DNA from: Candidatus Uhrbacteria bacterium
GTDB taxonomy: Bacteria; Patescibacteriota; Patescibacteriia; UBA9934; GWF2-40-263
Assembly (NCBI GenBank): GCA_016188495.1
Contig: JACPHU010000029.1
Span: 11,136-75,135 of the forward strand
Direction of reading: 5' to 3'
Length of the DNA: 64,000 nucleotides
Of the stretch, positions 18,906 to 51,563 are shown piece by piece. The first letter of the stretch is position 1; each line of letters begins with the position of its first letter. The translations under genes and the position numbers were made by a program. Below the pieces are notes generated by a model. It made no database searches, was not told where the DNA came from, and saw only the letters and a program-made list of their open reading frames with translations.

Positions 18906-19060
18906 TGTCTAAAAATACCCGTAAAAAATGGTTGAAGGATTTCCGTCTTGATCCCGTAATCAATCTCCAGCTGTTCGCTAAACAGGCGAGATGACCTGAG
19001 CACGACACCCTCGGCGTCCCAAAAGATTGCTTTAATATTCGCTTTTACATCAGCGTTCAT
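18896..19060 (-). pseudogene. truncated duplicate of the N-terminus of the HAD hydrolase gene at 50001..50618
   Basis: Minus strand encodes MNADVKANIKAIFWDAEGVVLRSSRLFSEQLEIDYGIKTEILQPFFTGIFRQCT* (54 aa). About 85% nt identity to 50495..50630. Ends in a stop overlapping the DUF218 start. Confidence 0.5.
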
Positions 19061-19317: not shown

Positions 19318-21513
<2,196 letters not shown>

Positions 21514-23889: not shown

Positions 23890-24830
23890 ACAACAAAAAA
23901 ACGACCGATAAAGTCGCTTTCTTCTCCCTTCTCAACAAGGCTATGCGGACACCACCTGCAAAAGCAAGTGGAAAAGATGTTCGTCCGCAGTCCGCAGATT
24001 CCATCTCCAAACGTGTTCATCGAGATACTTCTGCAAGTGTTTAGGAGAGATTGAGTGGTGCGTGCCGTCAATGGAACGCTTTAGCTGGCTCCAAAAGCCC
24101 TCGATTGTGTTTGTGTGTGCTTCTCCTTTCACATACTCCTTGCGTCCGTGATTGACTGTCTCGTGCTTGTAGCCCATTTTAGACGCTTTGCCGTAGCTTT
24201 GATATTCGTCCGTCATAAGCGTTGCGCCGACTTGCACGTTTTCACGCACGATTGCCATGACTGTTGACGCTTTCGTGTTTACTGTCGCTTTTGCGTAAAC
24301 TCCACCGCCTCGCTTGTGAAGTCCAACGACTGGTGTTTTACCTTCTGCTCCACGTCCTCGTTTTCCTTTACGCTTGCCTCCGATGTACGTTTCGTCGGCT
24401 TCCACGATACCACCGAATATGTCAGGCATTTGCTCCATGAGCTGACGAATCTGATATGCCATGCGCCATGCACACTTGTAGGTGACACCTAGCTGTCGCT
24501 CTAGCTCCTTAGCTGATACTCCATTCTTCGCTGTTGAAAACAAGTACATAGCAAAGAACCATTTATAAAGATCGGTGCTTGACTTTTCAAAGATTGTTCC
24601 TTGTTTAGGGCTGATCTGATGACCACCACAAGAACACACGAAATGGCTTGTAAACGCTTGAAGGTGGTATTTACCAGATTGCTTGCACGTTGGGCATACA
24701 GCGTCCTTGTGAAGTGATTCAAAGAGGTATTTCAAACACGCCTCGTTGTTAGGGAATTGCTTATTAAATGATTGGATTGTGTACTTCGCTTGCTTCATAT
24801 AGACACACCTTAGCAGGTATGCTACTATAT
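23890..24830 (-). mobile_element. IS1595-like insertion sequence (boundaries approximate; inverted repeats not resolved)
   Basis: Single transposase gene with short flanks. Confidence 0.4.
23941..24798 (-). CDS. IS1595-family (ISXO2-like) DDE transposase
   Basis: N-terminal Zn-finger CPTC...CSCGGHQ, DDE region with ADETYIGGK and TNTIEGFWSQLKR signatures. Confidence 0.8.
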   Translation of the reverse strand: MKQAKYTIQSFNKQFPNNEACLKYLFESLHKDAVCPTCKQSGKYHLQAFTSHFVCSCGGHQISPKQGTIFEKSSTDLYKWFFAMYLFSTAKNGVSAKELERQLGVTYKCAWRMAYQIRQLMEQMPDIFGGIVEADETYIGGKRKGKRGRGAEGKTPVVGLHKRGGGVYAKATVNTKASTVMAIVRENVQVGATLMTDEYQSYGKASKMGYKHETVNHGRKEYVKGEAHTNTIEGFWSQLKRSIDGTHHSISPKHLQKYLDEHVWRWNLRTADEHLFHLLLQVVSA

Positions 24831-25724: not shown

Positions 25725-25820
25725 TAAAGCCTTTTCATCTCGTGCTGATATTTTAGCAAATTTTGTGGTTTAGTTCGAGTAATTACTGAGAAATAATGAC
25801 TCGCTTTTCGTTCTGGCTTT

Positions 25821-25897
25821 AAACAAAAAATCACCATTTTTTAATGACGATTTTTTGACAAAGCATGTGGGTCTACTCACACGCCTTCTCATGGCTC
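25821..25897. repeat. ~80-bp direct repeat, distal copy of the tRNA-Asn 3' flank (includes terminator hairpin)
   Basis: aaacaaaaaatcaccattttttaatgacgattttttgacaaagcatgtgggtc.actcacacgc.ttctcatggctc is nearly identical to 51408..51496. Confidence 0.7.
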
Positions 25898-31826: not shown

Positions 31827-32465
31827 TTATGAATTTTTAACAACTTTAATGACCACACCGTTTACTAAATATCCTGACGTGTTCAGATCTTCCTCGTGCA
31901 ACACGATAGGAGGAATTGGTGAAGTAGATTCTGAAACAAGACGAATCTCGTGTTTAGCTTTGTCTTTATAGAAACGTTTAAAGTTTGCTGCTTCATCAAT
32001 GATGGAGATAACGTAGTTTCCATCCTGAGGCGCTTTCTTTGTATCAACGATGACGTAGTCACCATTTTCGATTGATTCTCCTTCTACGTCTGCCTTGTTC
32101 AGTGAATTACCAATGGCACGAACAGCAATGAGACCGTTTGGACGTGAGACCCCTAGAGATCGCTGAGAAATCTTGAGGAATCCTTCAATGTCCTCACGGG
32201 CAAATTCCAAAGCTGGACCACAGTTTGCAGATCCGACGATTGGGATGTTGAAAAGGTTATCCACAACGTACGCAAGTGGTTTGGCAATTCGATGTTGTTT
32301 CTTGGTGTCGACATAGAACAACCCCTTTTTCTTGAGTTGTTCCAAGTGGTAAATGACGGTTTGAGGATTTTCGATATCAAGTTCGCGTGCGATTTCACGA
32401 AAACTCATCTTCGATAGATCCTTATTCTCTGCCAATTCAAGCAGTTTTTGTTGATTCTCATGCAT
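31827..32465 (-). CDS. LexA/CI-like repressor (HTH + S24 peptidase domain)
   Basis: N-terminal HTH (FREIARELDIENPQTVIYHLEQLKKKGL). C-terminal AVRAIGNSLNKADVEGESIENGDYVIVD...KRF with S24 Ser/Lys dyad spacing. Confidence 0.6.
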   Translation of the reverse strand: MHENQQKLLELAENKDLSKMSFREIARELDIENPQTVIYHLEQLKKKGLFYVDTKKQHRIAKPLAYVVDNLFNIPIVGSANCGPALEFAREDIEGFLKISQRSLGVSRPNGLIAVRAIGNSLNKADVEGESIENGDYVIVDTKKAPQDGNYVISIIDEAANFKRFYKDKAKHEIRLVSESTSPIPPIVLHEEDLNTSGYLVNGVVIKVVKNS

Positions 32466-32631
32466 AAAAAGTTGGTGATTGAAAAGTGACTGATGGTATG
32501 AAGATGTACTTCGACACGCACTCATTGAAAATCATCTGAAGCTTATCAATCATTTATAATTTCGTCAATAATTTCCTTTACGGCATTGACACCATTGACA
32601 CAGAAAACAAGCCTGTATATACTTTTACTAT

Positions 32632-35662: not shown

Positions 35663-36664
35663 TTAAAATGTGTCTTTATTCCCATCGACGTAAACGATTG
35701 TCGAAACGTTCCATTTGTATTTCAAATTTTTCAATTCAGTATTTTTTAACTTCACGTCTTCATCCATGAACTGATTGTAATCGATTCCTGATTCCCAAAT
35801 TTTGCTCTCTTTTGCAGGAATTTCCTTATCGTAACTTATGCTCTTTGTAGAAATTTCGTTGTCAAAAATATCATAAAAAGTCAGAGTGCCCTCAACACCT
35901 CTTATTTCTTTATCTGTGTTGTTGGTAAATTTCAGGCTCATCGTAATTTGATCCTGATAACTGCCAGACATATAGTCAGCCTGATGGAATCCTTTGTCTG
36001 TAATTTCGAGAGTGACTTTTTGCAGTTCTATTTTTGCTTGTTCAGTATTGGCTGGAACCATCTGGTTTGCGCCACCTTGTTGGAGGCTGCTTTCCAATTG
36101 CTTCTTTTCCTGAGTTGGTTGTTGCGTATTTTGAGTATTGGACGTGGAACCAAGGACAAGAGCCAGGACAATCAAGGCAAAAATTGAGAGGATAACGCCA
36201 TGTTTTGCCGCAAGCGTTTCTGGTTGTTTGGCGTGTTCCGTATCTACCTTCTTTGCATAACTTCCACAAACAAGATGCATGATGATTCCCATCGTAAGAC
36301 CAACGACACACGCGATGACGACAACGAAGGTTCCTCCAATTGCTGTTCCGATGGCGGCTCCGGCCTGCTCGCCCGCGCTGGTTGTGGAACTCACAGCTTG
36401 GGCTCCCAGAACAAACGTCATGATAATGGCAGAAATAGGCATGAAGAAAAAGGCTACTTCCATCAAACGAAAGTATCGTTCAAAAACAGCATTCTTGCTT
36501 TCAAAGGACCAGGAGGTCCAGACAACGAACACAAATAAAAGAATGAATGCAAGCCCCATGGATTTATTGGCGGTCATCCATGAATAATTGATGAAAAAAA
36601 TGAAGGTTGGTAAAAGAGCGACCAAAAGTTTGAGAAGCAGATGCTTCTTTGGTGTTTTCTCCAT
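35663..36664 (-). CDS. hypothetical membrane protein with extracytoplasmic C-terminal domain
   Basis: Multiple TM helices in the first 170 aa, then a soluble C-terminal half. Confidence 0.45.
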   Translation of the reverse strand: MEKTPKKHLLLKLLVALLPTFIFFINYSWMTANKSMGLAFILLFVFVVWTSWSFESKNAVFERYFRLMEVAFFFMPISAIIMTFVLGAQAVSSTTSAGEQAGAAIGTAIGGTFVVVIACVVGLTMGIIMHLVCGSYAKKVDTEHAKQPETLAAKHGVILSIFALIVLALVLGSTSNTQNTQQPTQEKKQLESSLQQGGANQMVPANTEQAKIELQKVTLEITDKGFHQADYMSGSYQDQITMSLKFTNNTDKEIRGVEGTLTFYDIFDNEISTKSISYDKEIPAKESKIWESGIDYNQFMDEDVKLKNTELKNLKYKWNVSTIVYVDGNKDTF

Positions 36665-36712
36665 AGGATGAAAAAGAGATAAGAATAATAGATGATTTAA
36701 ACCTCATTTATA

Positions 36713-36868
36713 AAAACAAAAAGGACACCCCTGAGGTGTCTAGACCCAAGTAACAGGACCGGAGTCGCTGCTGCTTGTTTTATCAGGAGTGCCCGTTATG
36801 ACGCATCAACGGACTCCTGAATAGCAAAGCAAAGCCCTGCTGCGGGTCTCTGTTACTTGAATCTAGAC
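36713..36868 (-). ncRNA. candidate structured RNA / riboswitch-like leader with intrinsic terminator (class not identified)
   Basis: On the minus strand a 19-23 bp closing stem (gtctagattcaagtaacag / ctgttacttgggtctagac) encloses the hairpin caggagtccgtt...aacgggcactcctg. A gacacc-tcagg-ggtgtc hairpin followed by ctttttgttttt lies 40 nt upstream of the 36664 start codon. Confidence 0.35.
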
Positions 36869-36950
36869 GTTTAAAGTTTAACATAAAACCCCTTGAAGTA
36901 AAGGGGTTTAATGAAAGTTACTCACTTCGAGATTTGAGGGCTTTAAAGCA

Positions 36951-38420
36951 TTATTCGCTCAAATTGTTGTGTAACCAATTACGTAAAAACTCTGTCGCGC
37001 GCACATCGTCTTCATTATAATTAACAATGTCGTTCAAAATACTTCTGTCATTTTTTTCCAACCATTCTTCATACCAAAAGATTGACTGTGCCCCTCCTGC
37101 TTTTACATGACGCCATTTGAAGTTGAGGAACTTGGATTTGGCGATATCTTTGATGGAGTAAAAATACAAAGGAAAAATAACCGAGTCTCTGACAACGATT
37201 TCCAAATCTACAAAATGAGACATGAACCTTCGCAGAGGATCTGAATCTCCATAGAGCTTGGCTAATTTTTCGCATTGTACCCGCTCGTATTTATTGTAAT
37301 GCCAAACGGTAAACTTCTCTTGAGGTAAAATCTCCAACCATTGCAAAAAAAGTTTCCACATTTCTCGTTCGTCCTCTGGCTGCTCGGCCAGAAAATAAAC
37401 GAAGTAACGCCCATCCTCCTGTTTTCGCACGTGACCTATTTGCGCATATACACCATCAGGATCACCTGAAACCCAAAAACCCCAAAGATACTGCACATCG
37501 ATGAGAGGATCGCCCTCGATGTCAAAATAAATATTGAGTGCCGTTTCGGGGAGTACTGGATGTCCGACCCATTTCAATTCACCGCTCAAAAGCGATTGTG
37601 CCTGGAGTCTCACACGACGAAGGGTATCAATTCCTGCATAAGGAACTTTTGGAAGTGTATCAACATCCATCTCTGCCGCATCTGTTACGGTATTGATACC
37701 GCACTCACGCAAGACTTCATGAGATCGAGAATCCAGACGATATAACAAGGCAATATCATGTGCCTTCTCCGCTTCGGCGACACATTGCGAATACCAAGGA
37801 CTGTATTTACATGAAGAAGAAAGCTTGAGTGGCGGTTTTTTTCCTTTCATTACAGAAAGAATCACATCGATACGATCAAACGTTTTGATTCGATGTTTTT
37901 CTTCAATTGAAAAAGCAATACGCCCATGATCTCGATTGATAATACTAACGTCCTGCGGAAACACTTTTTGAAGTTCCTCAAGAATTTTTGCGTACAGTGT
38001 CAACTGCATCCATTGCTCGGGTTTGATATCAGTCGAGCTTTTGATGTCGCAGGGAGCGTAGTAATAATCACCGAATTCAGACTCTTTATCGTACCTCTTC
38101 TCAAGAAGATCGGGTCGACCGCGATAAAGGACTCCGTTCATTTCAGATTCAATTTCTCCTTGGTAGATAAGCTCAACTCCTTCGCGCATAAGCATCATAG
38201 TGTGAGCAAAGGCATCCGCAGGTTTTCTTTCTTCGACCTCAACAAACGAAAGACCTTTCACATATTTTTCCTCATGCAAAATACCTTTCTCAAGAAGTTT
38301 CTCCATGAGCGCCGGTGTTTCTCCCTTCTTGGATAAATCAGAAAAACGATCATGCCACAACCAATGTGGGCATGTTGCGTATTGAAAAAAGAGGGATGGG
38401 GTGAAAACGAGACGAGGCAT
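36951..38420 (-). CDS. TM0106-family RecB-like nuclease (Cas4-like N-terminal domain + RNase H-like C-terminal domain)
   Basis: N-terminal CPHWLW Cys motif. YFDIEGDP in the C-terminal half. Confidence 0.55.
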   Translation of the reverse strand: MPRLVFTPSLFFQYATCPHWLWHDRFSDLSKKGETPALMEKLLEKGILHEEKYVKGLSFVEVEERKPADAFAHTMMLMREGVELIYQGEIESEMNGVLYRGRPDLLEKRYDKESEFGDYYYAPCDIKSSTDIKPEQWMQLTLYAKILEELQKVFPQDVSIINRDHGRIAFSIEEKHRIKTFDRIDVILSVMKGKKPPLKLSSSCKYSPWYSQCVAEAEKAHDIALLYRLDSRSHEVLRECGINTVTDAAEMDVDTLPKVPYAGIDTLRRVRLQAQSLLSGELKWVGHPVLPETALNIYFDIEGDPLIDVQYLWGFWVSGDPDGVYAQIGHVRKQEDGRYFVYFLAEQPEDEREMWKLFLQWLEILPQEKFTVWHYNKYERVQCEKLAKLYGDSDPLRRFMSHFVDLEIVVRDSVIFPLYFYSIKDIAKSKFLNFKWRHVKAGGAQSIFWYEEWLEKNDRSILNDIVNYNEDDVRATEFLRNWLHNNLSE

Positions 38421-38434: not shown

Positions 38435-39391
38435 TTGACAGAATTACATAACAAAGGTAGCATGTCTAATGTAAATAAGTCAAGATTTTATTACATTGTG
38501 AAGTGGACAATAGAAAACCAAACCGAGTTACAATCCGCATTCCTTGCGGGGTCTTTGGGTGCCTGGCGAGAAGCTTTTGAAGATTTTCAGGCTCCGACAA
38601 ATCTCCTACTTACTCATGAAGCACTTCTAGCCTTCACTGCCGAGACCATCGCAGACGATGATGATCCTACGGTTGTGTGTGCTAAGCGATACGCGAGTTT
38701 TCTTACGTCTATGCGAGCTCCGAATGACATTACTATTCAAGTATTGATCGAATGGCATAAGACACTTTTCGACAATCCCAGTGGATATCGCTTCAAACCA
38801 GGCGAGCTTAAGTCCAAGGAAGTTTCCATTCAACTTATTGAATTATTAGGTGAACTGAACCAGGAGTGGGTAGACCCGTTCACGAACATGCATCTGATTT
38901 ATACGGCGTTTATTAAGCTCTCACCGTTTCACGCTGGCAACGAAATAATGGCAAACGCTCTTCTTCACCTCATGCTCATGCATTTCAAGCTAACCACAAC
39001 GCCATCACTCCTACTTTCAAAGTTCGTCCCCGTGCAGGAGGACCTGACTTACGACAATTTTCTGCAGGGACTTCTAGAAGCACAGGAACACCTTCAGTCC
39101 ATTTATCAATCCGTAAGGATATTACAAAAACAATATCGAGATCGTGTAATGACTCTTGAGACCAGGCCAAAAAAGTTAGCTAATGACCTACTGTCATTCT
39201 TTCTTGAGCGGAAATCGTTCACTGTTCGCGAGATCGAATCCGCCTACGGCAAAAAGTATAAAATCACCTACCACACGCTTAACAAGCTTATGACGCAACT
39301 GGCCGAAGACCTCCATCTACTTGAAATCATCAGCTGGGGCGAGCGAAACCGCATGTTCTCACTCAAAGGATATCGAAAATTTTTTACCTAA
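38435..39391 (+). CDS. Fic/DOC-family protein (degenerate Fic motif)
   Basis: LSPFHAGNEIMANALL resembles HPFx(D/E)GNGR. First gene of the Type I R-M operon (3-nt gap to hsdM). Confidence 0.45.
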   Translation: MTELHNKGSMSNVNKSRFYYIVKWTIENQTELQSAFLAGSLGAWREAFEDFQAPTNLLLTHEALLAFTAETIADDDDPTVVCAKRYASFLTSMRAPNDITIQVLIEWHKTLFDNPSGYRFKPGELKSKEVSIQLIELLGELNQEWVDPFTNMHLIYTAFIKLSPFHAGNEIMANALLHLMLMHFKLTTTPSLLLSKFVPVQEDLTYDNFLQGLLEAQEHLQSIYQSVRILQKQYRDRVMTLETRPKKLANDLLSFFLERKSFTVREIESAYGKKYKITYHTLNKLMTQLAEDLHLLEIISWGERNRMFSLKGYRKFFT

Positions 39392-39393
39392 AT

Positions 39394-41433
39394 ATGACAA
39401 ACAACTTTCGAGAAAAAGCACAGCTCATCTGGAACATTGCCGACGTCCTACGTGGAAGTTGGAAACAACACGAGTATCAAGACGTTATTCTCCCGCTTGT
39501 GGTTGTGAAGCGACTGGATTCTATTTTGGCACCAACGAAACCCAAGGTGCTTCAGCAGTACAACGAACTGAAATCTAAGATCGATATTGATCCTGTGTTG
39601 AAATCAACATCGAAAGTCGGATTTTATAACGTATCCGAGTACGACTTTGAAAAGCTCCTCGAAGACCCGGATCATATTTCAGGAAACTTCAAGCATTATC
39701 TAAATGGGTTCAGTGAGAACATTCAGGACATTGTCGAAAAGTTTGAATTTGACCGCCAGCTCTCGAGACTTGAAGGAGGTAACCTTCTCTATCTCATCAT
39801 TAAAGAGCTTAATAAAGTGGATCTGCACCCAGATGTTGTCGATAACCATGAGATGGGATCGATCTTCGAAGAGCTGATTCGCCGATTCTCTGAGCAGTCC
39901 AACGAAACAGCTGGTGAGCATTATTCTCCGCGTGATGTTGTAAGACTTGCGGTAGAGATCCTGCTTGCACCGGACAAGGCACGTTTGGAAAAAGAACACA
40001 TCATTAAAACAGTTTACGATTGCGCGTGTGGTACAGGTGGAATGTTGTCTATTGCGAAAGAATATATTCAAAAAGAAGTGAATGATAAGGCAAACATCTA
40101 TTTGTATGGCCAGGAGCTCAACCCGGTCACATACGCCATGTGCAAGTCTGACATGCTAATTAAGGGCGAGAACCCAGACAACATTAAGGGCGGAGAAAAA
40201 GACCATTCACTTGCCAGCACGCTTTCCAACGATCAATTTTTTGGCACGCACTTCGACTACATGTTGACGAACCCACCTTTTGGAGTGGACTGGAAGAAGG
40301 ATATGGACGTGGTAGAGCGCGAAGCTGAACGCGGATACGCAGGGCGTTTTGGTGCAGGACTTCCACGGTCTTCTGATGGTCAGCTTCTCTTCCTACAGCA
40401 TCTTCTTTCAAAAATGCGACCCGAGAGCGAAGGCGGATCCCGTATTGGAATTGTCTTTAACGGGTCTCCTCTCTTTACAGGAAATGCTGGACAAGGTGAA
40501 AGCGAAATCCGTCGCTGGATTCTGGAACATGATTGGCTTGAAGCTATTGTCGCGCTTCCTGATCAACTCTTTTTCAACACTGGAATTCCAACTTACCTTT
40601 GGTTTATAACCAATCGAAAGTCAGATGAACGCAAAGACAAAGTCCAAATCATCGACGCGCGTGCATTCTCTGAGAAGATGCGAAAGAGTCTTGGCAACAA
40701 ACGCAACTTCATCACGGAAGAATTTAGAAAAAAGGTTTTAGAGGTTTACGCAGATTTCAGTGAAAACGAATACTCGAAGATCTTTAGCAATGAAGAGTTT
40801 GGGTACCGACAAATAACCGTTGAGCGTCCACTAAAGCTCAATTTTCAGGTATCACCGGAGCGGATCGCGGCACTTAAAGAGGAGTCAACATTCCAGAAAT
40901 TAGCAACATCCAAAAAGAAAGGAGAGAAAGGAAAAGAAGAGATTGAAGCCGGGCTGAAGCTTCAACAGCAGGTCATCACAACATTCAATGAAATGCCGAG
41001 TGAATTGTTTAAGAATGGAAATGAATTCGTGAAACTCCTTGAGGGGGTTTGGAAGAATAACGATCTCAAGCTACCTGCTCCACTGAAAAAAGTAGTGATA
41101 GATGCCTTATCTGAACAGGATGAATCCGCCAACGTATTTTTAGACAGCAAAGGTAAACAGCAAGCAGACACGAATTTGCGCGACACAGAAAACGTGCCGT
41201 TGAATCAGGATGTTTACGACTACTTTGCAAAAGAGGTAAAGCCCTATGTTCCTGATGCATGGATTGATGAAAGTAAGACAGACCACAAAGATAACAAGGT
41301 TGGAAAAGTTGGCTATGAAATTCTCGTCACTCGATTCTTCTACAAGTACGAGGCACCACGGTCACTGGATCAGATTCAGAAGGATATTGAGCAGGTTGAG
41401 AGTGAGTTAGATTCACTGATTAAGCAGATGTAG
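39394..41433 (+). CDS. hsdM: Type I restriction-modification N6-adenine methyltransferase subunit
   Basis: N-terminal HsdM domain (LWNIADVLRG). Motif IV LTNPPFGVDW. 679 aa. Confidence 0.9.
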   Translation: MTNNFREKAQLIWNIADVLRGSWKQHEYQDVILPLVVVKRLDSILAPTKPKVLQQYNELKSKIDIDPVLKSTSKVGFYNVSEYDFEKLLEDPDHISGNFKHYLNGFSENIQDIVEKFEFDRQLSRLEGGNLLYLIIKELNKVDLHPDVVDNHEMGSIFEELIRRFSEQSNETAGEHYSPRDVVRLAVEILLAPDKARLEKEHIIKTVYDCACGTGGMLSIAKEYIQKEVNDKANIYLYGQELNPVTYAMCKSDMLIKGENPDNIKGGEKDHSLASTLSNDQFFGTHFDYMLTNPPFGVDWKKDMDVVEREAERGYAGRFGAGLPRSSDGQLLFLQHLLSKMRPESEGGSRIGIVFNGSPLFTGNAGQGESEIRRWILEHDWLEAIVALPDQLFFNTGIPTYLWFITNRKSDERKDKVQIIDARAFSEKMRKSLGNKRNFITEEFRKKVLEVYADFSENEYSKIFSNEEFGYRQITVERPLKLNFQVSPERIAALKEESTFQKLATSKKKGEKGKEEIEAGLKLQQQVITTFNEMPSELFKNGNEFVKLLEGVWKNNDLKLPAPLKKVVIDALSEQDESANVFLDSKGKQQADTNLRDTENVPLNQDVYDYFAKEVKPYVPDAWIDESKTDHKDNKVGKVGYEILVTRFFYKYEAPRSLDQIQKDIEQVESELDSLIKQM

Positions 41434-41435
41434 AT

Positions 41436-42272
41436 ATGAATCGTGAACAAGAACAAAAGGCTAAAGAAGTCATGGGGCACGAAGACGTGTTTAGTGCTCT
41501 TGTTGAGATTTGTAAAAATCGTGAAACAGAATCGGTCGGAAATTATGGATATGAAATCTACATTCCACGAGTTATAGATAAATGGTGTCTAGCAAACATG
41601 GAGCAACTGGGAATCACAAGATGTGATTCAAATGAAACTGAGAAATGGAAAGAGCCTTTGTCTCCATACTTCTACAACGCTGCTTGGGAGCTTTGTCGAT
41701 TGGGTGTCCTTCGACCAGGTGTAACACATCACCATGCACAAGCTACCGATGACGGAAACGCAGGTAATGGATATTCTGTTACGCCATTTGGCGAACAATG
41801 GCTTCAGGAGTCAGGACCAGAATACGTTCCGACAGAACCGGGTCGTTTCGCTACACTTCTTGAACCGTTTGCAAAAGCATTTGGTCCTGGATTTCACGAA
41901 CGAGCCCAACAAGCTATTCGTTGTTACAACGCCCATGCGTATCTTGCCGCCTGTGTTATGTGCGGAGCGGCTGCAGAGTCTATTCTGCTTCAACTCGCCA
42001 TTACGAAGAATGGTGACGAGGGTGCAACACTCAACCTTTATCGTCGATCTGATGGAAGAAAGAAGATCGAGGATTTGATCATTGGCCAGCAGAAGGGTGG
42101 TGTAAAAGCTGACTTCGAAGTGTGCTTCGCTCTTCTGAAGTATTGGCGTGACGAAAGTGCGCATGGTCGAAGGTCTGAAATTGGTGAGGCGGAAGCATTC
42201 ACGTCGCTTGCATTGTTATTGAGAGCCGCACAGTTCGCTCACGATAATTTTCAGATGTTAACGGCTAAATGA
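41436..42272 (+). CDS. HEPN-like (DUF4145-type) protein inserted between hsdM and hsdS
   Basis: C-terminal helical domain ending in KYWRDESAHG (Rx4H HEPN motif). 3-nt gap upstream and 4-nt overlap downstream. Confidence 0.4.
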   Translation: MNREQEQKAKEVMGHEDVFSALVEICKNRETESVGNYGYEIYIPRVIDKWCLANMEQLGITRCDSNETEKWKEPLSPYFYNAAWELCRLGVLRPGVTHHHAQATDDGNAGNGYSVTPFGEQWLQESGPEYVPTEPGRFATLLEPFAKAFGPGFHERAQQAIRCYNAHAYLAACVMCGAAAESILLQLAITKNGDEGATLNLYRRSDGRKKIEDLIIGQQKGGVKADFEVCFALLKYWRDESAHGRRSEIGEAEAFTSLALLLRAAQFAHDNFQMLTAK

Positions 42273-43603
42273 ATATGAAATACGCATTACGAGACAAAAA
42301 AGAGATGAAAGATACAGACCTCACGGGCATCAATTGGATCCCGCGTGGCTGGTCGGTCTTGAAACTAAAACAGTTGACCGATCGACCCTTCCAATATGGT
42401 CTAAACGAATCGGCTATTGATAATGTAGACGGGGATCCCCGCTACATCAGAATTACAGACATCACAACCAGCGGATCGCTTAGAAAAGATACTGTTAAAA
42501 CAATGTCTTCTGAAAAAGCTCGTGGATATATTTTGCAGGATGGCGATTTATTGTTCGCCCGCTCAGGAGCCACGGCAGGAAAACCTTTCATGTATCGTGA
42601 ATTCGACGGTGTAAGTTGTTTTGCGGGATACTTGATTCGCTTCGTCCCGAATAAAGACAAACTATTTCCCCGTTTCCTAGATTTTGTGTCACAGTCTGCT
42701 TATTACGAGAGCTGGAAAAATAGCATTTTTATTCAGGCGACCATTCAAAACATTAGTGCGGACAAGTATAAAGAATTTCTAATTCCCATTCCTTCAACCG
42801 ACGACCAAAAACGTATTGCTGACTTCCTCGATGAAAAAACGGTGGTGATTGATGAGGTGGTGAAGAAGAAAAAGAAGCAGATTGAACTACTAAAAGAAAA
42901 ACGCGATGCACTTATTACTCAGGCTGTGACGAAGGGTCTTAATTCGAATGTGAAGATGAAAGATTCGGGTGTTGAGTGGATTGGCGAGATTCCAGAGGGG
43001 TGGAATTTAGTTAGACTTCGTAGAGTTGTTTCACTAAATCCTTCAAAGCAAGAGTCTAAACATATTTCAGAAGATAGTGACGTTACATTTCTGCCGATGA
43101 CAAAGGTATCTTCTAAAGGCACATTCGATAAAGAAGTTGTTTCAAAAAAGAATGATGTTGCGACTGGTTTCACCTATTTTCGTAACGGTGATGTTATTAC
43201 TGCCAAGATCACGCCTTGTTTTGAAAACGGAAAAGGAGCGTTGGTAAATGATTTAGTAAATGGCATTGGTTTTGGATCGACTGAATTCACTGTTATTCGG
43301 CCAAGCTCTTCAATTAATGGTACGTATCTGTACTACCTAGTGCATTCAGAGATGTTTAGAAAATCTGGTGGGCCGTGGATGTATGGTTCCGCTGGACAAC
43401 AACGCGTGCCCGACAGGTTCATTAAAGAGTTTCAAGCACCGCTACCATCGATTGAGGAACAGGAGAAAATTGTAATGCAACTGGATAGAGGGCTGAACTT
43501 ACTAGACAGATCAATAAAAACGATTCAAAAATCAATAAAACTAATTCAAGAATACCGTTCGTCGCTCATCTCACATGTGGTGACTGGGAAGATTGTTGTA
43601 TGA
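42269..43603 (+). CDS. hsdS: Type I restriction-modification specificity subunit
   Basis: Two target-recognition domains separated by the conserved central coiled-coil EFLIPIPSTDDQKRIADFLDEKT and a C-terminal repeat of it. Confidence 0.85.
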   Translation: MNMKYALRDKKEMKDTDLTGINWIPRGWSVLKLKQLTDRPFQYGLNESAIDNVDGDPRYIRITDITTSGSLRKDTVKTMSSEKARGYILQDGDLLFARSGATAGKPFMYREFDGVSCFAGYLIRFVPNKDKLFPRFLDFVSQSAYYESWKNSIFIQATIQNISADKYKEFLIPIPSTDDQKRIADFLDEKTVVIDEVVKKKKKQIELLKEKRDALITQAVTKGLNSNVKMKDSGVEWIGEIPEGWNLVRLRRVVSLNPSKQESKHISEDSDVTFLPMTKVSSKGTFDKEVVSKKNDVATGFTYFRNGDVITAKITPCFENGKGALVNDLVNGIGFGSTEFTVIRPSSSINGTYLYYLVHSEMFRKSGGPWMYGSAGQQRVPDRFIKEFQAPLPSIEEQEKIVMQLDRGLNLLDRSIKTIQKSIKLIQEYRSSLISHVVTGKIVV

Positions 43604-44427
43604 AGAACTTTCTTGAAACATATCCTTTGTACAAATGGATTGAATTCCAAGCAACCGAGGATCACGAAAAGTATAAAGATGTAAAAGTCCATCCCCCTGC
43701 AGTCAATTTAGATTGTTCTATATGTGAATCAAAGCAAACATATCGAGTTTATGAAGATGGATCGCTAGCTAATTTTGGTGGACATCACGATAACAACATT
43801 TATCGTCTTGAATATGTTTGCGCAGGATGCAAATCTGCAAATATAGAGTTTTTACTTTTCGTCCATCGGAGTAACGGCCACGATGCAAAGAGCAAGAAAT
43901 ATCTCTACAAAATGAAAATTCAAAAAATTGGTCAGTTTCCTGCTTGGTCCATTAATCCAGACCCGGGGATATCCAAATTGTTAGGTGAGCATGTAGATAC
44001 GTATAAAAAGGGGTTGGTTTGCGAATCTCAAGGTTACGGTATAGGGGCATTTGCGTATTACCGAAGGATCGTCGAAGATAACGTCGAGTCGTTACTGAAT
44101 CAAATCAAAGAATTAGTCGAGGATGAAACTGATGTAGTAAAAGGCATTGAAGAAGTGAAGGCTGAACATAATACAGAGCAAAGAATCAGGATTGCATCGA
44201 CCGTACTTCCAGAGTCGCTACAAGTGGCCGGGAACAATCCTCTTTCGGTAATTTATAGTGCTTTGAGTGAAGGGTTACACGTACAAGATGATGAGACCTG
44301 TCTAAATTTGGCGCACAATATCCGTGAAGCGCTGACATATTTAGTGCATCAAATTAATCTACAAACACAAGGTAAAAGACAATTTACGGAGAGTTTAAAA
44401 CAGATTGTAATCGCTAAAACTAAATAG
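43600..44427 (+). CDS. hypothetical Zn-ribbon protein embedded in the Type I R-M operon
   Basis: CSIC...CAGC Zn-ribbon then about 170-aa helical domain. Translationally coupled (4-nt overlap with hsdS). Confidence 0.45.
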   Translation: MKNFLETYPLYKWIEFQATEDHEKYKDVKVHPPAVNLDCSICESKQTYRVYEDGSLANFGGHHDNNIYRLEYVCAGCKSANIEFLLFVHRSNGHDAKSKKYLYKMKIQKIGQFPAWSINPDPGISKLLGEHVDTYKKGLVCESQGYGIGAFAYYRRIVEDNVESLLNQIKELVEDETDVVKGIEEVKAEHNTEQRIRIASTVLPESLQVAGNNPLSVIYSALSEGLHVQDDETCLNLAHNIREALTYLVHQINLQTQGKRQFTESLKQIVIAKTK

Positions 44428-44428
44428 T

Positions 44429-44689
44429 ATGCCATTGCCAGATAATTATAAAGATCTAATTCTTGAGAAACTCAAGGAAAAAGGTGCGATACCTCTGTGT
44501 GAGATTTGTCAGCACAATGACTGGGCAGTTGTGGATCAGGCTATTAGTGCACCAATTTCAGATTTGACTGGAGGAATGAGGATCCCGCAACCGCAGATCC
44601 CTTGTGCTGGTCTCATTTGCAACAACTGCGGAAATTTAAGACTTTTCGCTCTTGGTGCGTTGGGTATTGATGTTAATCCGAAAAAGTAG
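44429..44689 (+). CDS. small Zn-ribbon protein (86 aa)
   Basis: CEIC...CNNCG. Starts 2 nt after the previous stop. Confidence 0.4.
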   Translation: MPLPDNYKDLILEKLKEKGAIPLCEICQHNDWAVVDQAISAPISDLTGGMRIPQPQIPCAGLICNNCGNLRLFALGALGIDVNPKK

Positions 44690-44692
44690 GAT

Positions 44693-45106
44693 ATGCCTGA
44701 CTATATTCATCATGATCCTGATCGCATTCTCTATTCGTTATCTGAAGATGAACTGGAGAATCTTTCAAATCAAGCACAATCACTTTGGAAGGACGTATGT
44801 CTCGTATCATTTTCGGTTGGGATCCCAACTGTAATTAATGCCATTGCAGAATTAAGTAATCAAGAAACATTTCAAATAACGATAACCATTTTCTTAAATA
44901 TATTGATTGGCATCATGGGGATTGCACTTGGAATAGTTTTTGCTATTGCTTGGCACCGATCACATAAGTCAATTAAAAATGTTATGGATAATATAAAAGC
45001 GAGACCAAAGATTGAATTGAATCCTACTACCTCCAATGTTGGAGCTCTGGAGGATCTCCGAGGAGAACTCAAAAAGATTGCGAATCAGCCTGCAAGATGG
45101 GGGTAA
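44693..45106 (+). CDS. small 2-TM membrane protein (137 aa)
   Basis: Two strong hydrophobic helices (VCLVSFSVGIPTVINAIAEL; ITIFLNILIGIMGIALGIVFAIAW). Starts 4 nt after the previous stop. 10 nt before hsdR. Confidence 0.4.
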   Translation: MPDYIHHDPDRILYSLSEDELENLSNQAQSLWKDVCLVSFSVGIPTVINAIAELSNQETFQITITIFLNILIGIMGIALGIVFAIAWHRSHKSIKNVMDNIKARPKIELNPTTSNVGALEDLRGELKKIANQPARWG

Positions 45107-45115
45107 ATAATATAT

Positions 45116-48070
45116 ATGAAAATCACGAATACGAAAGAAATCGGCTTTGAGGAATATATCGAGAAACAGCTCGTCGAAGTTAATGGATACAAGAAACAGT
45201 CCAATACTGCCTATCAACGGAATCTTTGTTTAGATCCGGAGATGGTCTTGGAGTTTATTAATGTCACTCAGGCTGATGCGTGGGGTGAACTTCTCAAGAT
45301 GCATGGTGAAGATATTAACGAGAAGTTCTTTAAGCGGTTATCGGATGAGGTTCGTGACCGCGGGGTGCTTGATGTTCTTCGGAATGGTTTTGCGGATCAT
45401 GGCGTAAATTTCAAGATGGCATATTATCCTCCCAACTCGGGGATGAATGAGGAGACGATTCGTTTGTTCGAGTCGAACGTACTTAGTGCCATGCGACAGG
45501 TTCACTACAGTGAAAAAGATGTTGATTTGTCTTTGGACACGGTTATTTTCCTCAACGGTCTTCCTATCTTTACTATTGAATTGAAAAACCAGCTCACTGG
45601 TCAAAGTGTTCAAAATGCCATTCGCCAATATCGAACAGATAGAGACCCTAAGGAACCTTTGTTTGTGTTTAAGCGATGTTTGGCGCATTTTGCCGTAGAT
45701 ACTAAGCAGGTCTACATGACGACAAAGCTGGCGGGGCTCAAAACGTATTTCTTGCCATTTAATAAGGGATACAATAGCGGCGCGGGAAATCCTCCAAATG
45801 CAGATGGATACATGACCTCTTATCTTTGGGAAGATATTTGGACAAAGAAAAGCGTGCTCGAGCTCGTAGGGAAATTTATCACGCTGCAAAAAGAAAAAGA
45901 TGTTGACAGTAAAGGGCGTGAGATTATTAAAGAGAAACTCATCTTTCCCCGTTACCATCAACGCGACACGGTTCAGCGTTTGATAGCTGACGCACGTGAT
46001 AATAGTGCCGGACAGAACAATTATCTGATTCAACATAGCGCAGGGAGTGGAAAGAGCAATACGATCGGATGGACGGCACATCGATTGTCTGAACTTTATA
46101 ATGCAGATGACAAAAAGGTGTTTGACACGGTTTTGGTTATTACAGACCGGCGTGTTCTCGATCGGCAATTGCGAGACACTGTTACGCAGTTTGAACAGCG
46201 TGCGGGTGTTGTAAAAGCGATCACGGAAGGATCAAAGGAATTGCAAGAAGCATTGGAGGGCGGTGAGAAAATCATCATCACAACTTTGCAGAAGTTTCCA
46301 TTCATCGTTGACTCCATCGGAAATCTTCCCGGTAAGAACTTTGCGGTCATTATTGACGAAGCGCATTCTTCACAATCCGGAGAAGGTGCCGCAAACTTGC
46401 GGGAAGCTTTGACAACGAATGATTTGAGCGATGCAGAGAAACAGGAGTCAGATGAACCTGAGACGACGGAAGACATGGTGTTGCGCAAGCTTCGCAGTCG
46501 AAAGATTAAGACAGACAACATCAGCTTCTTTGCGTTTACAGCCACACCCAAGCAAAAGACGTTGGAGTTGTTTGGGACAAAAAGCCCAATTGATGGCAAG
46601 TATTATCCATTTAGCCTTTACTCGATGAAGCAGGCTATCGAAGAGCGTTTTATTCTTGATGTGCTGAAGAATTACACAACGTATCAGGCGTATTTTGCTT
46701 TGTTGAAAAAAGTTGAAGACGACCCGGAGTTTGATAAGAAAAAGGCACAAAGACTGCTTATTGGATATGTTGAGAAACATGAGCATGCGATAGCGAAAAA
46801 AGTGGAGATCATGGCCGAGCACTTCAGAGCTCGTATTGCTAAAGAGATACATGGCAAAGCAAAGGCGATGATCGTCACAAAATCTCGGCTGCACGCTGTT
46901 CGTTACAAGCAAGCGATGGATGTCTATCTACGCGAACATAACTATCCGTTCAAGGCATTGGTCGCATTCTCCGGAGTCGTAAAGGATGGTGTGAGTGAAT
47001 ATTCTGAGGGGGGAATGAATGGTGTTTCAGAAAAGCAAACGGCGGAGACATTTAAGCAAGATGATTATCGGTTCTTGATTGTTGCTGAGAAGTTTCAAAC
47101 GGGATTTGATCAGCCGTTGCTAGGTGCTATGTACGTTGATAAAAAGCTCGGAGGAGTGAACGCCGTACAAACATTGAGTCGTTTGAACCGTACGACATCC
47201 GATAAGGAAGAAGTGCTCGTGTTGGATTTTGTGAATGACATGGATGATATCAAGGAAGCGTTCCAGCCATATTACACAACGACTGTTTTGTCGGAGGGTA
47301 CTGACCCAAATATTCTTCATGACTTGGAGCGAGATCTCTATGCCTTTAAGTTATTTACACAGCATGAGGTTGATGGATTTGTACATGAGTTATTTCACAA
47401 TGCATCTCCAGCAACCATTAATGCAATCCTAGATAAGGTTATTGAGCAATACCATGAAGGTCTTCCACAAGAACAGGAGGACTTTCGTAAAAAGTGCACA
47501 GATTTTGTGCGTCGATATGCGTTTGCAGCTCAAATTATTCCATACGAAAGTTCTGAACTTGAAAAGCTATACACATTCACACGTCTTCTCTTGAAAAAGA
47601 TTCCACGTGTAAAAGAAGCTTTGCCAACAGATGTATTGGATAGCGTCGACATGGAATCATATAAGCTCGTACATCGTGGACAGGATGCTATTCGCTTGGA
47701 GGATGAGCTTGGAAAGCTTGATCCAATGCAGAGTGGACAAAAGGGTGAAGATATAAAAGAGCATGACCGTCTCTCAAAAATTATCAATGATATAAACGAC
47801 CGGTTCGGCACAGAGTTTTCTGTTGAAGATGTTGTGATCACAAATCAGCTTGGAGAACGTTTGGTGAATAACCCAATGCTTCAGGGATCAATCAAAAACA
47901 ACACCCGCGATGCCGCGAAGATCAAGTTTGACGAAGTTCTCGGACAAGAGTTGGTTGAAATGTTAAACCGTCATTTCGACTTTTATAAAAAACTCGATAA
48001 AAATCCTGACTTGAAGACCTACTTCGGTGAAAAAATGTTCGATCATGTTGTAAATGCGGTAAAAAAATAA
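45116..48070 (+). CDS. hsdR: Type I restriction enzyme endonuclease/translocase subunit
   Basis: N-terminal PD-(D/E)xK (DTVIFLNGLPIFTIELKNQ). SF2 helicase motifs (AGSGKSNT; DEAH in VIIDEAHSSQ). 984 aa. Confidence 0.9.
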   Translation: MKITNTKEIGFEEYIEKQLVEVNGYKKQSNTAYQRNLCLDPEMVLEFINVTQADAWGELLKMHGEDINEKFFKRLSDEVRDRGVLDVLRNGFADHGVNFKMAYYPPNSGMNEETIRLFESNVLSAMRQVHYSEKDVDLSLDTVIFLNGLPIFTIELKNQLTGQSVQNAIRQYRTDRDPKEPLFVFKRCLAHFAVDTKQVYMTTKLAGLKTYFLPFNKGYNSGAGNPPNADGYMTSYLWEDIWTKKSVLELVGKFITLQKEKDVDSKGREIIKEKLIFPRYHQRDTVQRLIADARDNSAGQNNYLIQHSAGSGKSNTIGWTAHRLSELYNADDKKVFDTVLVITDRRVLDRQLRDTVTQFEQRAGVVKAITEGSKELQEALEGGEKIIITTLQKFPFIVDSIGNLPGKNFAVIIDEAHSSQSGEGAANLREALTTNDLSDAEKQESDEPETTEDMVLRKLRSRKIKTDNISFFAFTATPKQKTLELFGTKSPIDGKYYPFSLYSMKQAIEERFILDVLKNYTTYQAYFALLKKVEDDPEFDKKKAQRLLIGYVEKHEHAIAKKVEIMAEHFRARIAKEIHGKAKAMIVTKSRLHAVRYKQAMDVYLREHNYPFKALVAFSGVVKDGVSEYSEGGMNGVSEKQTAETFKQDDYRFLIVAEKFQTGFDQPLLGAMYVDKKLGGVNAVQTLSRLNRTTSDKEEVLVLDFVNDMDDIKEAFQPYYTTTVLSEGTDPNILHDLERDLYAFKLFTQHEVDGFVHELFHNASPATINAILDKVIEQYHEGLPQEQEDFRKKCTDFVRRYAFAAQIIPYESSELEKLYTFTRLLLKKIPRVKEALPTDVLDSVDMESYKLVHRGQDAIRLEDELGKLDPMQSGQKGEDIKEHDRLSKIINDINDRFGTEFSVEDVVITNQLGERLVNNPMLQGSIKNNTRDAAKIKFDEVLGQELVEMLNRHFDFYKKLDKNPDLKTYFGEKMFDHVVNAVKK

Positions 48071-48207: not shown

Positions 48208-49542
48208 ATGTACGCACAAAACACGAACAACGATCCCGGCAAAGCCATACCAATCCGCTACTGCCTTTACGCGAGAAAATCGTCCGAGGATGACGAACGC
48301 CAGGCATTATCAATCGAGAGTCAGGTTAAGGAGGCACTTGAACTTGCTACGAGAGATGGCTTGAATGTTGTCGAAGTTCGCCGTGAAAGTCATTCTGCGA
48401 AAAGCTCCGGGTCACGCCCGGAGTTTAATCGTTTAATTGGGGACATTCGGGAAAAGAAATTCGACGGAATCCTAACATGGGCGGCGGATCGCATAAGTCG
48501 TAACGCCGGTGATCTTGGAACCGTTATCGATCTCATGGATCAAGGACTGCTTCGAGAAATTCTTACGCATGGCACAAAGTTCACCAACTCACCGAGCGAC
48601 AAGTTCATGCTCATGATGATGTGTGGTCAGGCAAAGCTGGAGAACGATAACAAGGGTGTGAACGTGAAGCGTGGGTTTCGGGCAAAGATCGAGATGGGTT
48701 TTCGACCAAACATGTCACCACTCGGATACCTCCACGATAAATATGCAGAAAAAGGAACATGTAAAATCTTTATGGATCCTGTTCGTGGACCAATTATCAA
48801 AGAAGTATTTCATAAAGTTGCCTACGAAGGTTGGACTGGGCGCAGCGTAAAACGCTGGCTCGATGATGAAATGAAGCTCACGACGCGCAAAGGTAAACAG
48901 GTATCGCTCAGCATGATCTACCGCATGATGGATAATTCGTTCTACACGGGTCGCTACGAGTTCCCGCAAGGAAGTGGAAAATGGTACGACGGTAAGCACG
49001 AGGCACTCATCACGAAGGATATATTTGATCGTGTGCAAGAAGTCATGAAATGCGCTCCGAAGGCGTTACCGGGAACTCACGAATTCGCCTTCACAAGAGT
49101 CTTCAAGTGCGGTGAGTGTGGATCCGGTATCAGCGCAGACCAAAAAGTGAAACGACTGAAAGACGGAACGACAAAACGATACGTCTACTATGGATGTATG
49201 AAGCGTTGGATGACAGGATGCAAACAGCCGTACATTCGCGAGGAGGAGTTGCTCGACCAGCTCTACAAAATCATCGATAAGGTAAACATCAATGAACTTG
49301 CAGCTATCGAGCGAATCAAACAAGAAATTGAGCGACTGACGAAGATGATCTCAAGCCTCGGCGGTCACATCGCGACCGCAAAAGTCGCCGAAATCATGCC
49401 GGACATCGATGTCTACGCTTGCGCGAAATACATCTTGAAAGAAGGCACCAAAGACGAGAAACGTGATCTGCTTAATCACATCAATACTGAATTGTTGATC
49501 TCTGACGGAAAGATAAGCTTCAAGGGTAAGGCTAAACGCTAA
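48208..49542 (+). CDS. large serine recombinase (resolvase/invertase catalytic domain + recombinase domain + zinc ribbon)
   Basis: YARKSSEDDERQALSIESQ with catalytic Ser, resolvase fold. CGECGSGISADQ zinc ribbon. AGGAG RBS. Confidence 0.85.
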   Translation: MYAQNTNNDPGKAIPIRYCLYARKSSEDDERQALSIESQVKEALELATRDGLNVVEVRRESHSAKSSGSRPEFNRLIGDIREKKFDGILTWAADRISRNAGDLGTVIDLMDQGLLREILTHGTKFTNSPSDKFMLMMMCGQAKLENDNKGVNVKRGFRAKIEMGFRPNMSPLGYLHDKYAEKGTCKIFMDPVRGPIIKEVFHKVAYEGWTGRSVKRWLDDEMKLTTRKGKQVSLSMIYRMMDNSFYTGRYEFPQGSGKWYDGKHEALITKDIFDRVQEVMKCAPKALPGTHEFAFTRVFKCGECGSGISADQKVKRLKDGTTKRYVYYGCMKRWMTGCKQPYIREEELLDQLYKIIDKVNINELAAIERIKQEIERLTKMISSLGGHIATAKVAEIMPDIDVYACAKYILKEGTKDEKRDLLNHINTELLISDGKISFKGKAKR

Positions 49543-51228: not shown

Positions 51229-51407
51229 AGTGCCTGAATGATAGCAACTTTTGATAAATTCCCACAGTCTGGCGGAATCGAACCTTGTCTGGGGATCGAA
51301 CCGAAAAAATAAGGCAAATTTCTTCTTTTGGGCATTTGAGAAAAATTCGATCAGTTTGCGTCCCAGATACTTCGGCTTTTTGGTCGGGCTACAAGAGTCG
51401 CTATTTG

Positions 51408-51496
51408 CTCAAAGACTAAACAAAAAATCGCCATTTTTTAATGACGATTTTTTGACAAAGCATGTGGGTCACTTCACACGCTTTCTCATGGCTCGG
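51408..51496. repeat. ~85-bp direct repeat, tRNA-proximal copy (tRNA 3' end + terminator hairpin + flank)
   Basis: Near-identical to 25821..25897. Overlaps the last 8 nt (GAGCCA...) of tRNA-Asn. Confidence 0.7.
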
Positions 51497-51563
51497 GGGG
51501 CGGGATTCGAACCCGCGACCAATTGGTTAACAGCCAACTGCTCTGCCACTGAGCTACCCCCGA
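51489..51563 (-). tRNA. tRNA-Asn (anticodon GTT), CCA encoded
   Basis: Minus-strand cloverleaf folds by hand. Acceptor TCGGGGG/CCCCCGA. D-arm GCTCAGTGGCAGAGC. Anticodon loop CTGTTAA. T-arm GCGGGTTCGAATCCCGC. Discriminator G then CCA. Confidence 0.85.

Follow-up and report, generated by a model that had tools for sequence, protein, structure and literature searches.

The window, that is, the whole 64,000-nt stretch of Candidatus Uhrbacteria DNA analysed here (contig JACPHU010000029.1, positions 11,136 to 75,135), carries on its minus strand a TM0106-family RecB-like nuclease gene, then an intergenic region at 36713..36868, and then the genes of a multi-transmembrane (multi-TM) protein and of an HsdR_N-like protein of the PD-(D/E)XK type. 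There is little room for doubt that the intergenic region is a real, conserved and structured small RNA gene of about 155 nt. The RNA represents a new family, absent from Rfam 15, of a generally known kind, namely a prophage-borne small RNA (sRNA) or terminated leader. It lies in an integrative, phage-like element of the candidate phyla radiation (CPR, or Patescibacteria), a group of uncultivated bacteria with reduced genomes; very little is known of their regulatory RNAs and mobile elements. The mobile-element context is seen in a large serine recombinase, Cro/CI- or LexA-type repressors, a ParB-methylase and a TerS-like helix-turn-helix (HTH) protein, as well as a large terminase in the homologous locus L081 (loci are designated here by L numbers).

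The fold of the RNA is organised around a long closing helix, P1 (Table 1). In the window, P1 comprises 19 bp, two neighbouring U.G pairs among them; beyond it A36849 is bulged, and 4 bp more follow (GACC 36848..36845 / GGUC 36760..36757). The consensus order of elements in the family is P1 (13-19 bp, with conserved U.G pairs), P2 (short, with a U-rich loop), P3, the linker UAAAACAA, the small hairpin P4 and a terminator, and the window copy has the 4-bp extension of P1 in the place of P4. Elsewhere in the family P2 reads GGCCA-U5-UGGCC or similar, and the window copy can be aligned there only in part. The base of P3 (C[CA]GGA / UCC[GU]G) is the best-conserved part of the RNA, and the junction nucleotides AUU and UAAAACAA are also conserved. 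The initial annotation had described a 19-bp helix growing to about 23 bp with one bulge, an internal hairpin (P3), segments containing GCAGCAG and a gacacc/ggtgtc terminator. All of these were recovered, the GCAGCAG segments being two in number and the terminator hairpin (36740..36724) being detected by a terminator scan as well. The gap between the terminator and the ATG is short, as had been noticed, but it measures 47 nt (from the last U to the ATG at 36664) and not about 40 nt.

The minimum free energy of the 171-nt stretch containing the RNA is -67.1 kcal/mol versus -43.1 +/- 4.1 kcal/mol for 200 dinucleotide shuffles (z = -5.8), none of which folded as well (0/200). The plus strand folds about equally strongly, but the U.G pairs become A.C mismatches there, and the covariance models (CMs) described below score 141-171 bits on the forward strand versus 22-24 bits on the reverse. 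The minus strand was assigned because the U.G pairs of P1, the promoter, the terminator and the CM scores agree; neither a promoter nor a terminator was found on the plus strand. No open reading frame (ORF) is common to the window copy and the other members, and no start codon is present. A 46-codon open frame found in four similar members was rejected as coding, being absent from the window copy and devoid of a start codon.

Table 1. Coordinates of the RNA, its parts and the genes around it in the window, and of LOOT RNA copies in related loci
Feature	Position	Strand	Sequence or basis
Small RNA, ~156 nt, bounded by the foot of P1 and the last nucleotide of the U-tract	36713..36868	-	fold, CM matches
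P1 5' strand (closing helix)	36850..36868	-	GUCUAGAUUCAAGUAACAG; sequence and fold
P1 3' strand	36738..36756	-	CUGUUACUUGGGUCUAGAC; sequence and fold
P2 hairpin	36823..36841	-	AGCAGGGC-UUU-GCUUUGCU in the window; fold
P3, long irregular hairpin	36784..36819	-	CAGGAGUCCGUU...AACGGGCACUCCUG; fold
Single-stranded linker from P3 to the 3' part	36775..36782	-	UAAAACAA; invariant in 5/5 members
-35-like box	36897..36902	-	TTTACT; sequence; inside the loop of the upstream gene's terminator hairpin
Extended -10 box	36875..36883	-	TGtTAAACT; sequence; G36868 comes 6 nt later
Intrinsic terminator	36712..36740	-	GACACC/GGUGUC stem, then C and UUUUUGUUUUU; terminator scan
Downstream cargo gene 1, 333-aa multi-TM protein with an extracytoplasmic C-terminal domain	35663..36664	-	
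Downstream cargo gene 2, HsdR_N_2 (PD-(D/E)XK-type), 259 aa	34858..35637	-	PF13588
TM0106-family RecB-like nuclease gene, upstream of the RNA	36951..38420	-	
Terminator of the TM0106-family gene, parting it from the RNA unit	36889..36905	-	terminator scan
Large serine recombinase, divergent from the RNA	48208..49542	+	Pfam Resolvase + Recombinase + Zn_ribbon_recom
LexA/CI-type S24 repressor	31827..32525		
LOOT copies in related loci	L003:3815-3935, L004:342-462, L010:3815-3935, L015:3680-3798, L019:3798-3917, L044:2777-2897, L050:2814-2935, L052:1288-1406, L055:1901-2016, L057:1246-1362, L058:2815-2935, L059:470-592, L060:2819-2941, L065:2645-2760, L067:2680-2798, L151:124-253		

Four further full-length homologues were found (L080, L081, L144/L145 and L149), together with 3' fragments at contig ends (L029 and L150). 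In L080, a groundwater contig, the RNA stands ahead of a 65%-identical membrane gene; L081 is a 55.9-kb IMG/VR viral contig that was reached by a DNA pattern; in L144/L145 and L149 the RNA is ahead of or close to HsdR_N-like genes. The RNA is also present in L152 and in L025, which is 96.3% identical to the window over 4.2 kb and 100% identical in the RNA. A CM built from L080 and L081 only (R1) and scanned over 434 kb recovered the window copy with 40.5 bits (E ~6e-7 in 434 kb). Since R1 was built without the window copy, this match is an independent test of homology. R1 also matched L144/L145 (141 bits), L149 (158 bits) and the 3' fragments in L029 and L150, and a second model, R2, scores the window copy at 61.6 bits.

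In the model-based alignment of the five distinct sequences, all pair cells are canonical (174/174). Compensatory double changes were revealed in 14 of the 37 pairs, including nine of 15 in P1, two in P2, two in the outer stem of P3 (A-U to C-G and G-C to U-A) and one in P4. None of the 500 column shuffles reached the observed covariation, and pairing falls to 31-40% when the partners are slid by 1-3 columns. The covariation analysis that the initial annotation had proposed as a check revealed a structure conserved with compensatory changes among homologues.

So far, the RNA family is limited to CPR elements and is rare, one IMG/VR contig carrying it. With the RNA as the query, nhmmer and blastn returned only near-identical copies and the L029 fragment from homologous loci totalling about 420 kb. 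The pattern TAAAACAA...CTTGGGT matched 50 loci in IMG/VR; among them L083 and L098, which have an RNA-like span, and two sampled huge-phage contigs turned out to contain terminators or coding sequence and not the RNA, and the remaining huge-phage loci with the pattern, having the same 41-nt span and often a 327-nt spacing, were left unopened. A second core pattern matched L081 alone in IMG/VR. The RNA was not found in the 13 IMG/VR loci carrying relatives of the L081 large terminase, and searches of this database for relatives of the HsdR_N-like protein and the membrane protein likewise gave none. Four independent short-read contigs (L026:1, L027:1, L029:1 and L150:1) break off inside the long inverted repeat of the RNA. 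As assemblers break at P1, metagenome assemblies probably contain too few members of the family, or truncated ones.

A predicted promoter precedes P1. The -35 box TT[TC]ACT, a spacer of 16-17 nt and the -10 box TA[AT][AC]CT are present in the window, L081, L144 and L149 (in the window the hexamers occupy 36902..36897 and 36880..36875, and the TG of the extended -10 box is at 36883..36882); L080 keeps the -10 box and has a weaker -35 box (TTCTCT). The -10 box (TAAACT, TATACT or TATCCT) is placed 6 nt ahead of the first G of P1 in 5/5 members, and homology between the loci starts at about the -35 box. This conservation points to a sigma-70-type promoter of the RNA, and the spacing makes the foot of P1 very likely to be the transcription start.

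Every member ends with a GACACC/GGUGUC hairpin followed, after 1-2 nt, by an interrupted U-tract. In the window, the hairpin GACACC-UCAG(G)-GGUGUC is followed by C and the U-tract 36722..36712, the tail being written CUUUUUGUUUUU. The hairpin alone is weak (about -8 kcal/mol), and GAC 36740..36738 is used twice, as the last 3 nt of P1 and the first 3 nt of the terminator stem. Full P1 with a truncated hairpin and P1 minus 3 bp with the full terminator are 0.1-0.5 kcal/mol apart in 4/5 members, and no separate antiterminator pairing was seen. The weak stem and the overlap with P1 suggest that the terminator is leaky. In every member, 6-9 bp could form between the linker UAAAACAA(G/A) and the terminator tail UUUGUUUU, a U-tract interrupted by G (36775-36782 versus 36712-36722 in the window and equivalent positions in L080, L081, L144 and L149). 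Pairing of the linker with the tail in cis was not relied on, the length of P1 making the geometry unlikely. The tail TTTTTGTTT is also found after LOOT, another RNA considered below, and after a tRNA in L080.

The cmscan search of the window against Rfam 15 (4227 models) gave tRNA-Asn as the sole gathering-level match and none in the region of the RNA; at E<=10, only sub-threshold chance matches appeared, and they differed between the members (window, L149 and L081). The models covered the RNA of the signal recognition particle (SRP), 6S, transfer-messenger RNA, RNase P, Y RNA, riboswitches, C4, abiF and LOOT, and the result agrees with the initial annotation, where no match to SRP, 6S or a known riboswitch could be made by eye. 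The blastn search against plasmid and phage nucleotide collections gave no match, and no record was found of the exact products of the two genes neighbouring the RNA. No second copy or repeat resembling a miniature inverted-repeat transposable element (MITE) was found in the window, and each related locus contains a single copy. Tandem Repeats Finder detected no tandem repeats in the RNA, and both RNA probes have no copies outside it. A bridge or seek RNA of the IS110 type was rejected, as the adjacent recombinase is a large serine recombinase and not a DEDD/IS110 enzyme, and flank complementarity is lacking. As is usual for bacterial sRNA genes, the RNA has its own predicted promoter, a Rho-independent terminator, a conserved structure and no ORF.

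The gene following the RNA is always on the same strand, with its ATG 36-55 nt past the U-tract, whatever its identity. In the window and L080 its product is a multi-TM protein, in L081 a 2-TM protein unrelated to it, in L149 an Ltp-domain lipoprotein (Pfam PF07553) and in L150 a TM2 protein; in L144 the HsdR_N-like protein follows directly and is itself followed by an AAA_15/AAA_21 ATPase. Ltp is the superinfection-exclusion lipoprotein of phage TP-J34. The HsdR_N-like homologue is encoded directly after the RNA or one small gene later in L080, L144, L149 and L150, and such a gene lies no further than one or two genes after the RNA in these four loci, the window and L025. In L149 the promoter of the RNA is back-to-back with the serine recombinase gene at a distance of 135 nt; in L144 the two are 1.5 kb apart. 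The L144 recombinase gene abuts a tRNA, which marks the end of the element, so the RNA is located inside the element by 1.5 kb. In L081 the RNA unit converges on TerL-TerS-methylase genes, and L080 also encodes ImmA plus an HTH protein.

The protein of cargo gene 1 has no Pfam or PADLOC match. More than 100 homologues of it were found, and every named source or host among the full-length ones belongs to the CPR (Parcubacteria, Paceibacterota, Peribacteria and others); the C-terminal domain by itself is also matched in metagenome-assembled genomes of Clostridia. Some homologues possess C-terminal domains of Ltp, DUF4352 or DUF5780 type. As was found by the tblastn search, many CPR loci carry the recombinase, the membrane gene, the HTH gene and the ParB-methylase as a linked group.

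The content of the slot upstream of the membrane gene was surveyed in 24 loci of GTDB genomes and 52 metagenomic loci, all collected via the membrane protein. The commonest occupant is an HTH_3 gene of Cro/CI type (68 aa), which is transcribed together with the membrane gene and located about 230 nt ahead of it (L001, L006, L007, L030-L049, L054 and L056). In L028 (411-577) and L066 (430-502), tRNA genes are fused to the 3' part of the HTH_3 gene with two different ...ACCA junctions; these fusions could represent an integration junction or a replacement event. LOOT RNA (RF03000) was detected in the slot in 15 loci with 64-93 bits, and one more copy, with 62 bits, precedes an HsdR_N-like gene in L151. 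LOOT occurs in CPR mobile elements on the strand of the gene and just upstream of it, often with an adjoining divergent large serine recombinase, and its genomic setting is thereby defined; in L055 and L057 it is 0.65-1 kb from the membrane gene. Another occupant is a rod-like RNA of about 125 nt from Peribacteria (L008, L009, L012 and L014 at about 3820-3950, and L063). This RNA, GGGUCUGUCGCCCA...UGGGCGACCUGCC, folds with about -70 to -79 kcal/mol, is highly conserved and has no Rfam match; four copies were too alike for covariation analysis. The third unclassified RNA in the slot (L016:3795-3945 and L069:1-55) has a 12-bp closing stem, AAACCACAAUUG / CAAUUGUGGUUU, and the terminator tail GGGUGU(A/C)CGUUUUUGUUUU; in L016 it is placed between the serine recombinase and the membrane gene. 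The recombinase adjoins LOOT in L019 and the L016-type RNA in L016. Neither R1 nor R2 matched LOOT or the other RNAs of the slot, among them the L016-type and Peribacteria-type ones. These RNAs are positional analogues and not detectable homologues of the RNA in the window.

LOOT is an orphan sRNA motif (Weinberg et al. 2017, NAR 45:10811, PMC5737381), and no published function for it was found in the reachable literature. It resembles the RNA in the window in occupying the same slot on the same strand, in having its own terminator, in standing tens of nucleotides ahead of homologues of the membrane gene (15 loci) or of the HsdR_N-like gene (L151), in belonging to CPR elements with a divergent large serine recombinase, and in being highly structured at a length of about 120 nt. 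However, the two do not share sequence or structure homology. LOOT was not matched in the window, L080, L081, L144 or L149, and in the window not even at E<=10, whereas true LOOT copies in neighbouring loci score 62-93 bits. The RNA in the window does not reach the 46.4 bits in cmscan that stand for the GCCUAAAC...GCAUGG 5' domain of LOOT with its three hairpins, and its long closing helix around a multi-helix junction differs from the fold of LOOT, in which a short P1 around one hairpin is followed by three hairpins. The match of contexts is a positional analogy, not family membership.

The reading that we favour, and hold at even chances, is that the RNA is a terminated leader sRNA that heads a variable cargo operon and probably acts in trans as well. 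We infer that transcription would start from the conserved sigma-70-type promoter at the foot of the closing helix and that most transcripts would stop at the weak terminator, the main product being a stable RNA, about 150 nt long, whose ends are paired. Limited read-through would then provide low-level expression of the variable cargo operon. Its products, superinfection-exclusion-type membrane proteins or lipoproteins and a PD-(D/E)XK protein, are of the kind that prophages express in lysogeny, and the operon may be expressed in that state. The RNA would probably also act in trans on a protein or RNA partner, for example a cargo protein, the recombinase, a repressor target or host RNAs.

The same organisation has been demonstrated by experiment for RCd22-abiF of the C. 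difficile prophage phi027, where a promoter, an RNA of about 100-130 nt and a terminator precede the gene; termination of the majority of transcripts yields the sRNA in abundance, and the gene is expressed by read-through (bioRxiv 10.1101/2025.04.15.648962). Like the RCd22- and ToxI-type systems, the RNA in the window is prophage-borne, and the order of a sigma-70-type promoter, an RNA of about 100-150 nt, a Rho-independent terminator, a short spacer and a defence-type gene is the same. In contrast to them, it has no repeated motif units, and the downstream proteins vary and are not Abi_2 or ToxN endoribonucleases.

A number of points weigh against the leader reading. The 5' and 3' ends of the RNA and the efficiency of termination are predictions from the sequence. 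The full-length sequences are five distinct ones in all, of which four are rather similar (L080 and L081 have 90% column identity); the covariation alignment was fitted to the model, and the E-values are rough because of a short calibration. The mismatches between the window and L025 are clumped, so the identity of their RNAs is weak evidence of selection. The spacers of 36-55 nt are AT-rich in several members and may contain promoters of their own, and with a promoter in the spacer the RNA would have no role in cis. Besides, the flanks of the five members (+/-800 nt) were searched for sites complementary to the linker or to the RNA as a whole, with nothing reproducible above chance, and a duplex scan of the island revealed nothing conserved.

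It is possible, if rather unlikely, that the RNA is a stand-alone prophage sRNA acting purely in trans by base pairing or protein binding, with the downstream genes using a promoter in the spacer. The RNA does have its own promoter and terminator, the downstream gene varies, and promoter-like hexamers are present in some spacers (weak TTTATA-18-TATTAT in the window and, read by eye, TTGCCC-18-GATAAT in L080). Rfam classes LOOT, the other RNA of the slot named above, as an sRNA gene, and in L055 and L057 LOOT is 0.65-1 kb away from the membrane gene. However, the orientation of the RNA is always that of the next gene, at a constant distance from the ATG, and the 37-nt spacer of L081 contains no convincing promoter by eye. 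The terminator, a weak one, is in competition with P1; the searches mentioned above yielded no convincing complementary target; and the RNA is almost fully structured, with little seed region except UAAAACAA.

The survey of the slot suggests a broader idea, which we regard as speculative and unlikely. CPR elements may possess a regulatory slot between the serine integrase and a lysogeny-type cargo operon, filled either by unrelated RNAs (this family, LOOT and at least two more unclassified ones) or by a Cro/CI-type gene, the RNAs serving as immunity or integration regulators or as partners of the integrase in hosts without Hfq-type machinery.

It is improbable that this RNA itself regulates a lysogeny or integration switch, either replacing the Cro/CI-type HTH gene or being a partner or regulator of the large serine recombinase. 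The slot of homologous elements contains the 68-aa HTH_3 gene, LOOT, this RNA or the two other structured RNAs; the promoter of the RNA is back-to-back with the recombinase in L149 and near it in L144, and LOOT and the L016-type RNA adjoin the recombinase in L019 and L016. RNA immunity factors provide a precedent: P4 CI and P1/P7 C4 (Rfam C4, RF01695) are immunity RNAs made from phage operon leaders. The RNA in the window is similar to them as a small structured RNA at the 5' end of a prophage operon, by genes of lysogeny and integration, which could replace a protein repressor. However, it has no match to Rfam C4, complementarity of a loop to a target in the C4 manner was sought and not found, and processing by RNase P is not indicated. 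The evidence for such a switch is purely positional, and complementarity in the flanks, including the recombinase side, is not above chance. Elements bearing the RNA have protein repressors too (the LexA/S24-type one in the window and ImmA plus HTH in L080), and large serine recombinases are not known to require an RNA.

The RNA might also be an antitoxin or a protein-sequestering partner, in the manner of type III toxin-antitoxin systems or RCd22-AbiF, for instance of the HsdR_N-like PD-(D/E)XK protein, and this we consider quite improbable. The geometry of promoter, RNA, terminator and gene is known for ToxIN and is the same here and in RCd22-AbiF, and the HsdR_N-like gene is within one or two genes of the RNA in the window, L025, L080, L144, L149 and L150. 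But L081 has no HsdR_N-like gene, and homologues of this protein (about 81% identical) occur without the RNA in housekeeping contexts (L146 and L147) or behind LOOT (L151). The idea of an antitoxin of the HsdR_N-like protein is weakened because close homologues occur without the RNA. Moreover, the RNA has no tandem repeats, and no match to Abi_2, ToxN or AbiE was found downstream in Pfam, NCBIfam and PADLOC.

A riboswitch sensing a metabolite or ion, or a ligand-dependent attenuator of the membrane-protein gene, is very improbable. With terminator-platform riboswitches the RNA shares a structured 5' element ahead of a membrane-protein gene, in which a closing P1 adjoins an intrinsic terminator; the junction nucleotides AUU and UAAAACAA are conserved, and the 3-nt overlap of P1 with the terminator is isoenergetic. 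However, the five downstream genes are unrelated and non-metabolic, with no transporter or enzyme among them, and P1 of 13-19 bp means that a ligand at the distant junction could not control the last 3 bp. No alternative antiterminator pairing was seen, there is no match to an Rfam riboswitch class, and the context is a mobile element, the slot in related elements holding an HTH gene or LOOT. Among the three options of the initial annotation, the small RNA and the attenuator-like terminated leader remain viable, and the metabolite riboswitch is not supported. That the region is no RNA at all but an inverted repeat acting as DNA (a MITE, an attachment or origin site, or a chance palindrome) is scarcely credible: the repeat is long and has TCTAGA at its core, assembled contigs are interrupted within it (L026, L027, L029 and L150) and the plus strand folds equally well, but it is single-copy in the window and every locus, its U.G pairs are strand-specific, P2-P4 are conserved with compensatory changes, and only one strand has the conserved promoter and terminator.

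The analysis adds a covariation-supported RNA family, missing from Rfam 15, at a defined position of an integrative phage-like element. The contextual result, unrelated RNAs alternating with a Cro/CI-type gene near a serine integrase, is more interesting than the family itself. The orphan LOOT and the other unclassified RNAs share their position with the repressor gene, and several RNAs without a known function are thereby brought to one question, namely the role of the first gene of the operon for the element; it may throttle the expression of the cargo, confer immunity or control integration. Should the RNAs replace the protein repressor, lysogeny control based on RNA would have a notable example outside Proteobacteria; should they not, the RNA in the window would be one more prophage sRNA or terminated leader. 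If the idea of the slot is true, the LOOT motif would gain its first functional context.

The mobile-element block of the window also includes convergent TerS-like HTH and ParB-methylase genes. The recombinase of the window is 12 kb from the RNA, with Fic, type I restriction-modification (R-M) and nuclease genes between them. Compared with L149 and L144, the window seems to have received this block by an insertion that parted the recombinase from the RNA. Positions 38435-48070 constitute a defence cluster containing a SoFic-like Fic gene and a type I R-M system (39394..48070), with hsdM (39394..41433), a gene for a DUF4145-like protein, hsdS (42269..43603), an ORF of 275 aa with no assigned function and hsdR (45116..48070).

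Two pairs of long direct repeats, 25798-25897 / 51395-51494 and 18903-19034 / 50479-50610, are 85% and 89% identical, respectively. They bracket the region of mobile-element genes, and one pair abuts tRNA-Asn (51489..51563, minus strand); the repeats may mark island boundaries or a local duplication. A gene at 19318-21495 on the minus strand encodes a protein of 725 aa that combines collagen triple-helix repeats with a peptidoglycan-binding domain, and is the source of large families of 9-nt-periodic repeats. A transposase gene of the IS1595 family is located near it, at 23941-24798 on the same strand.

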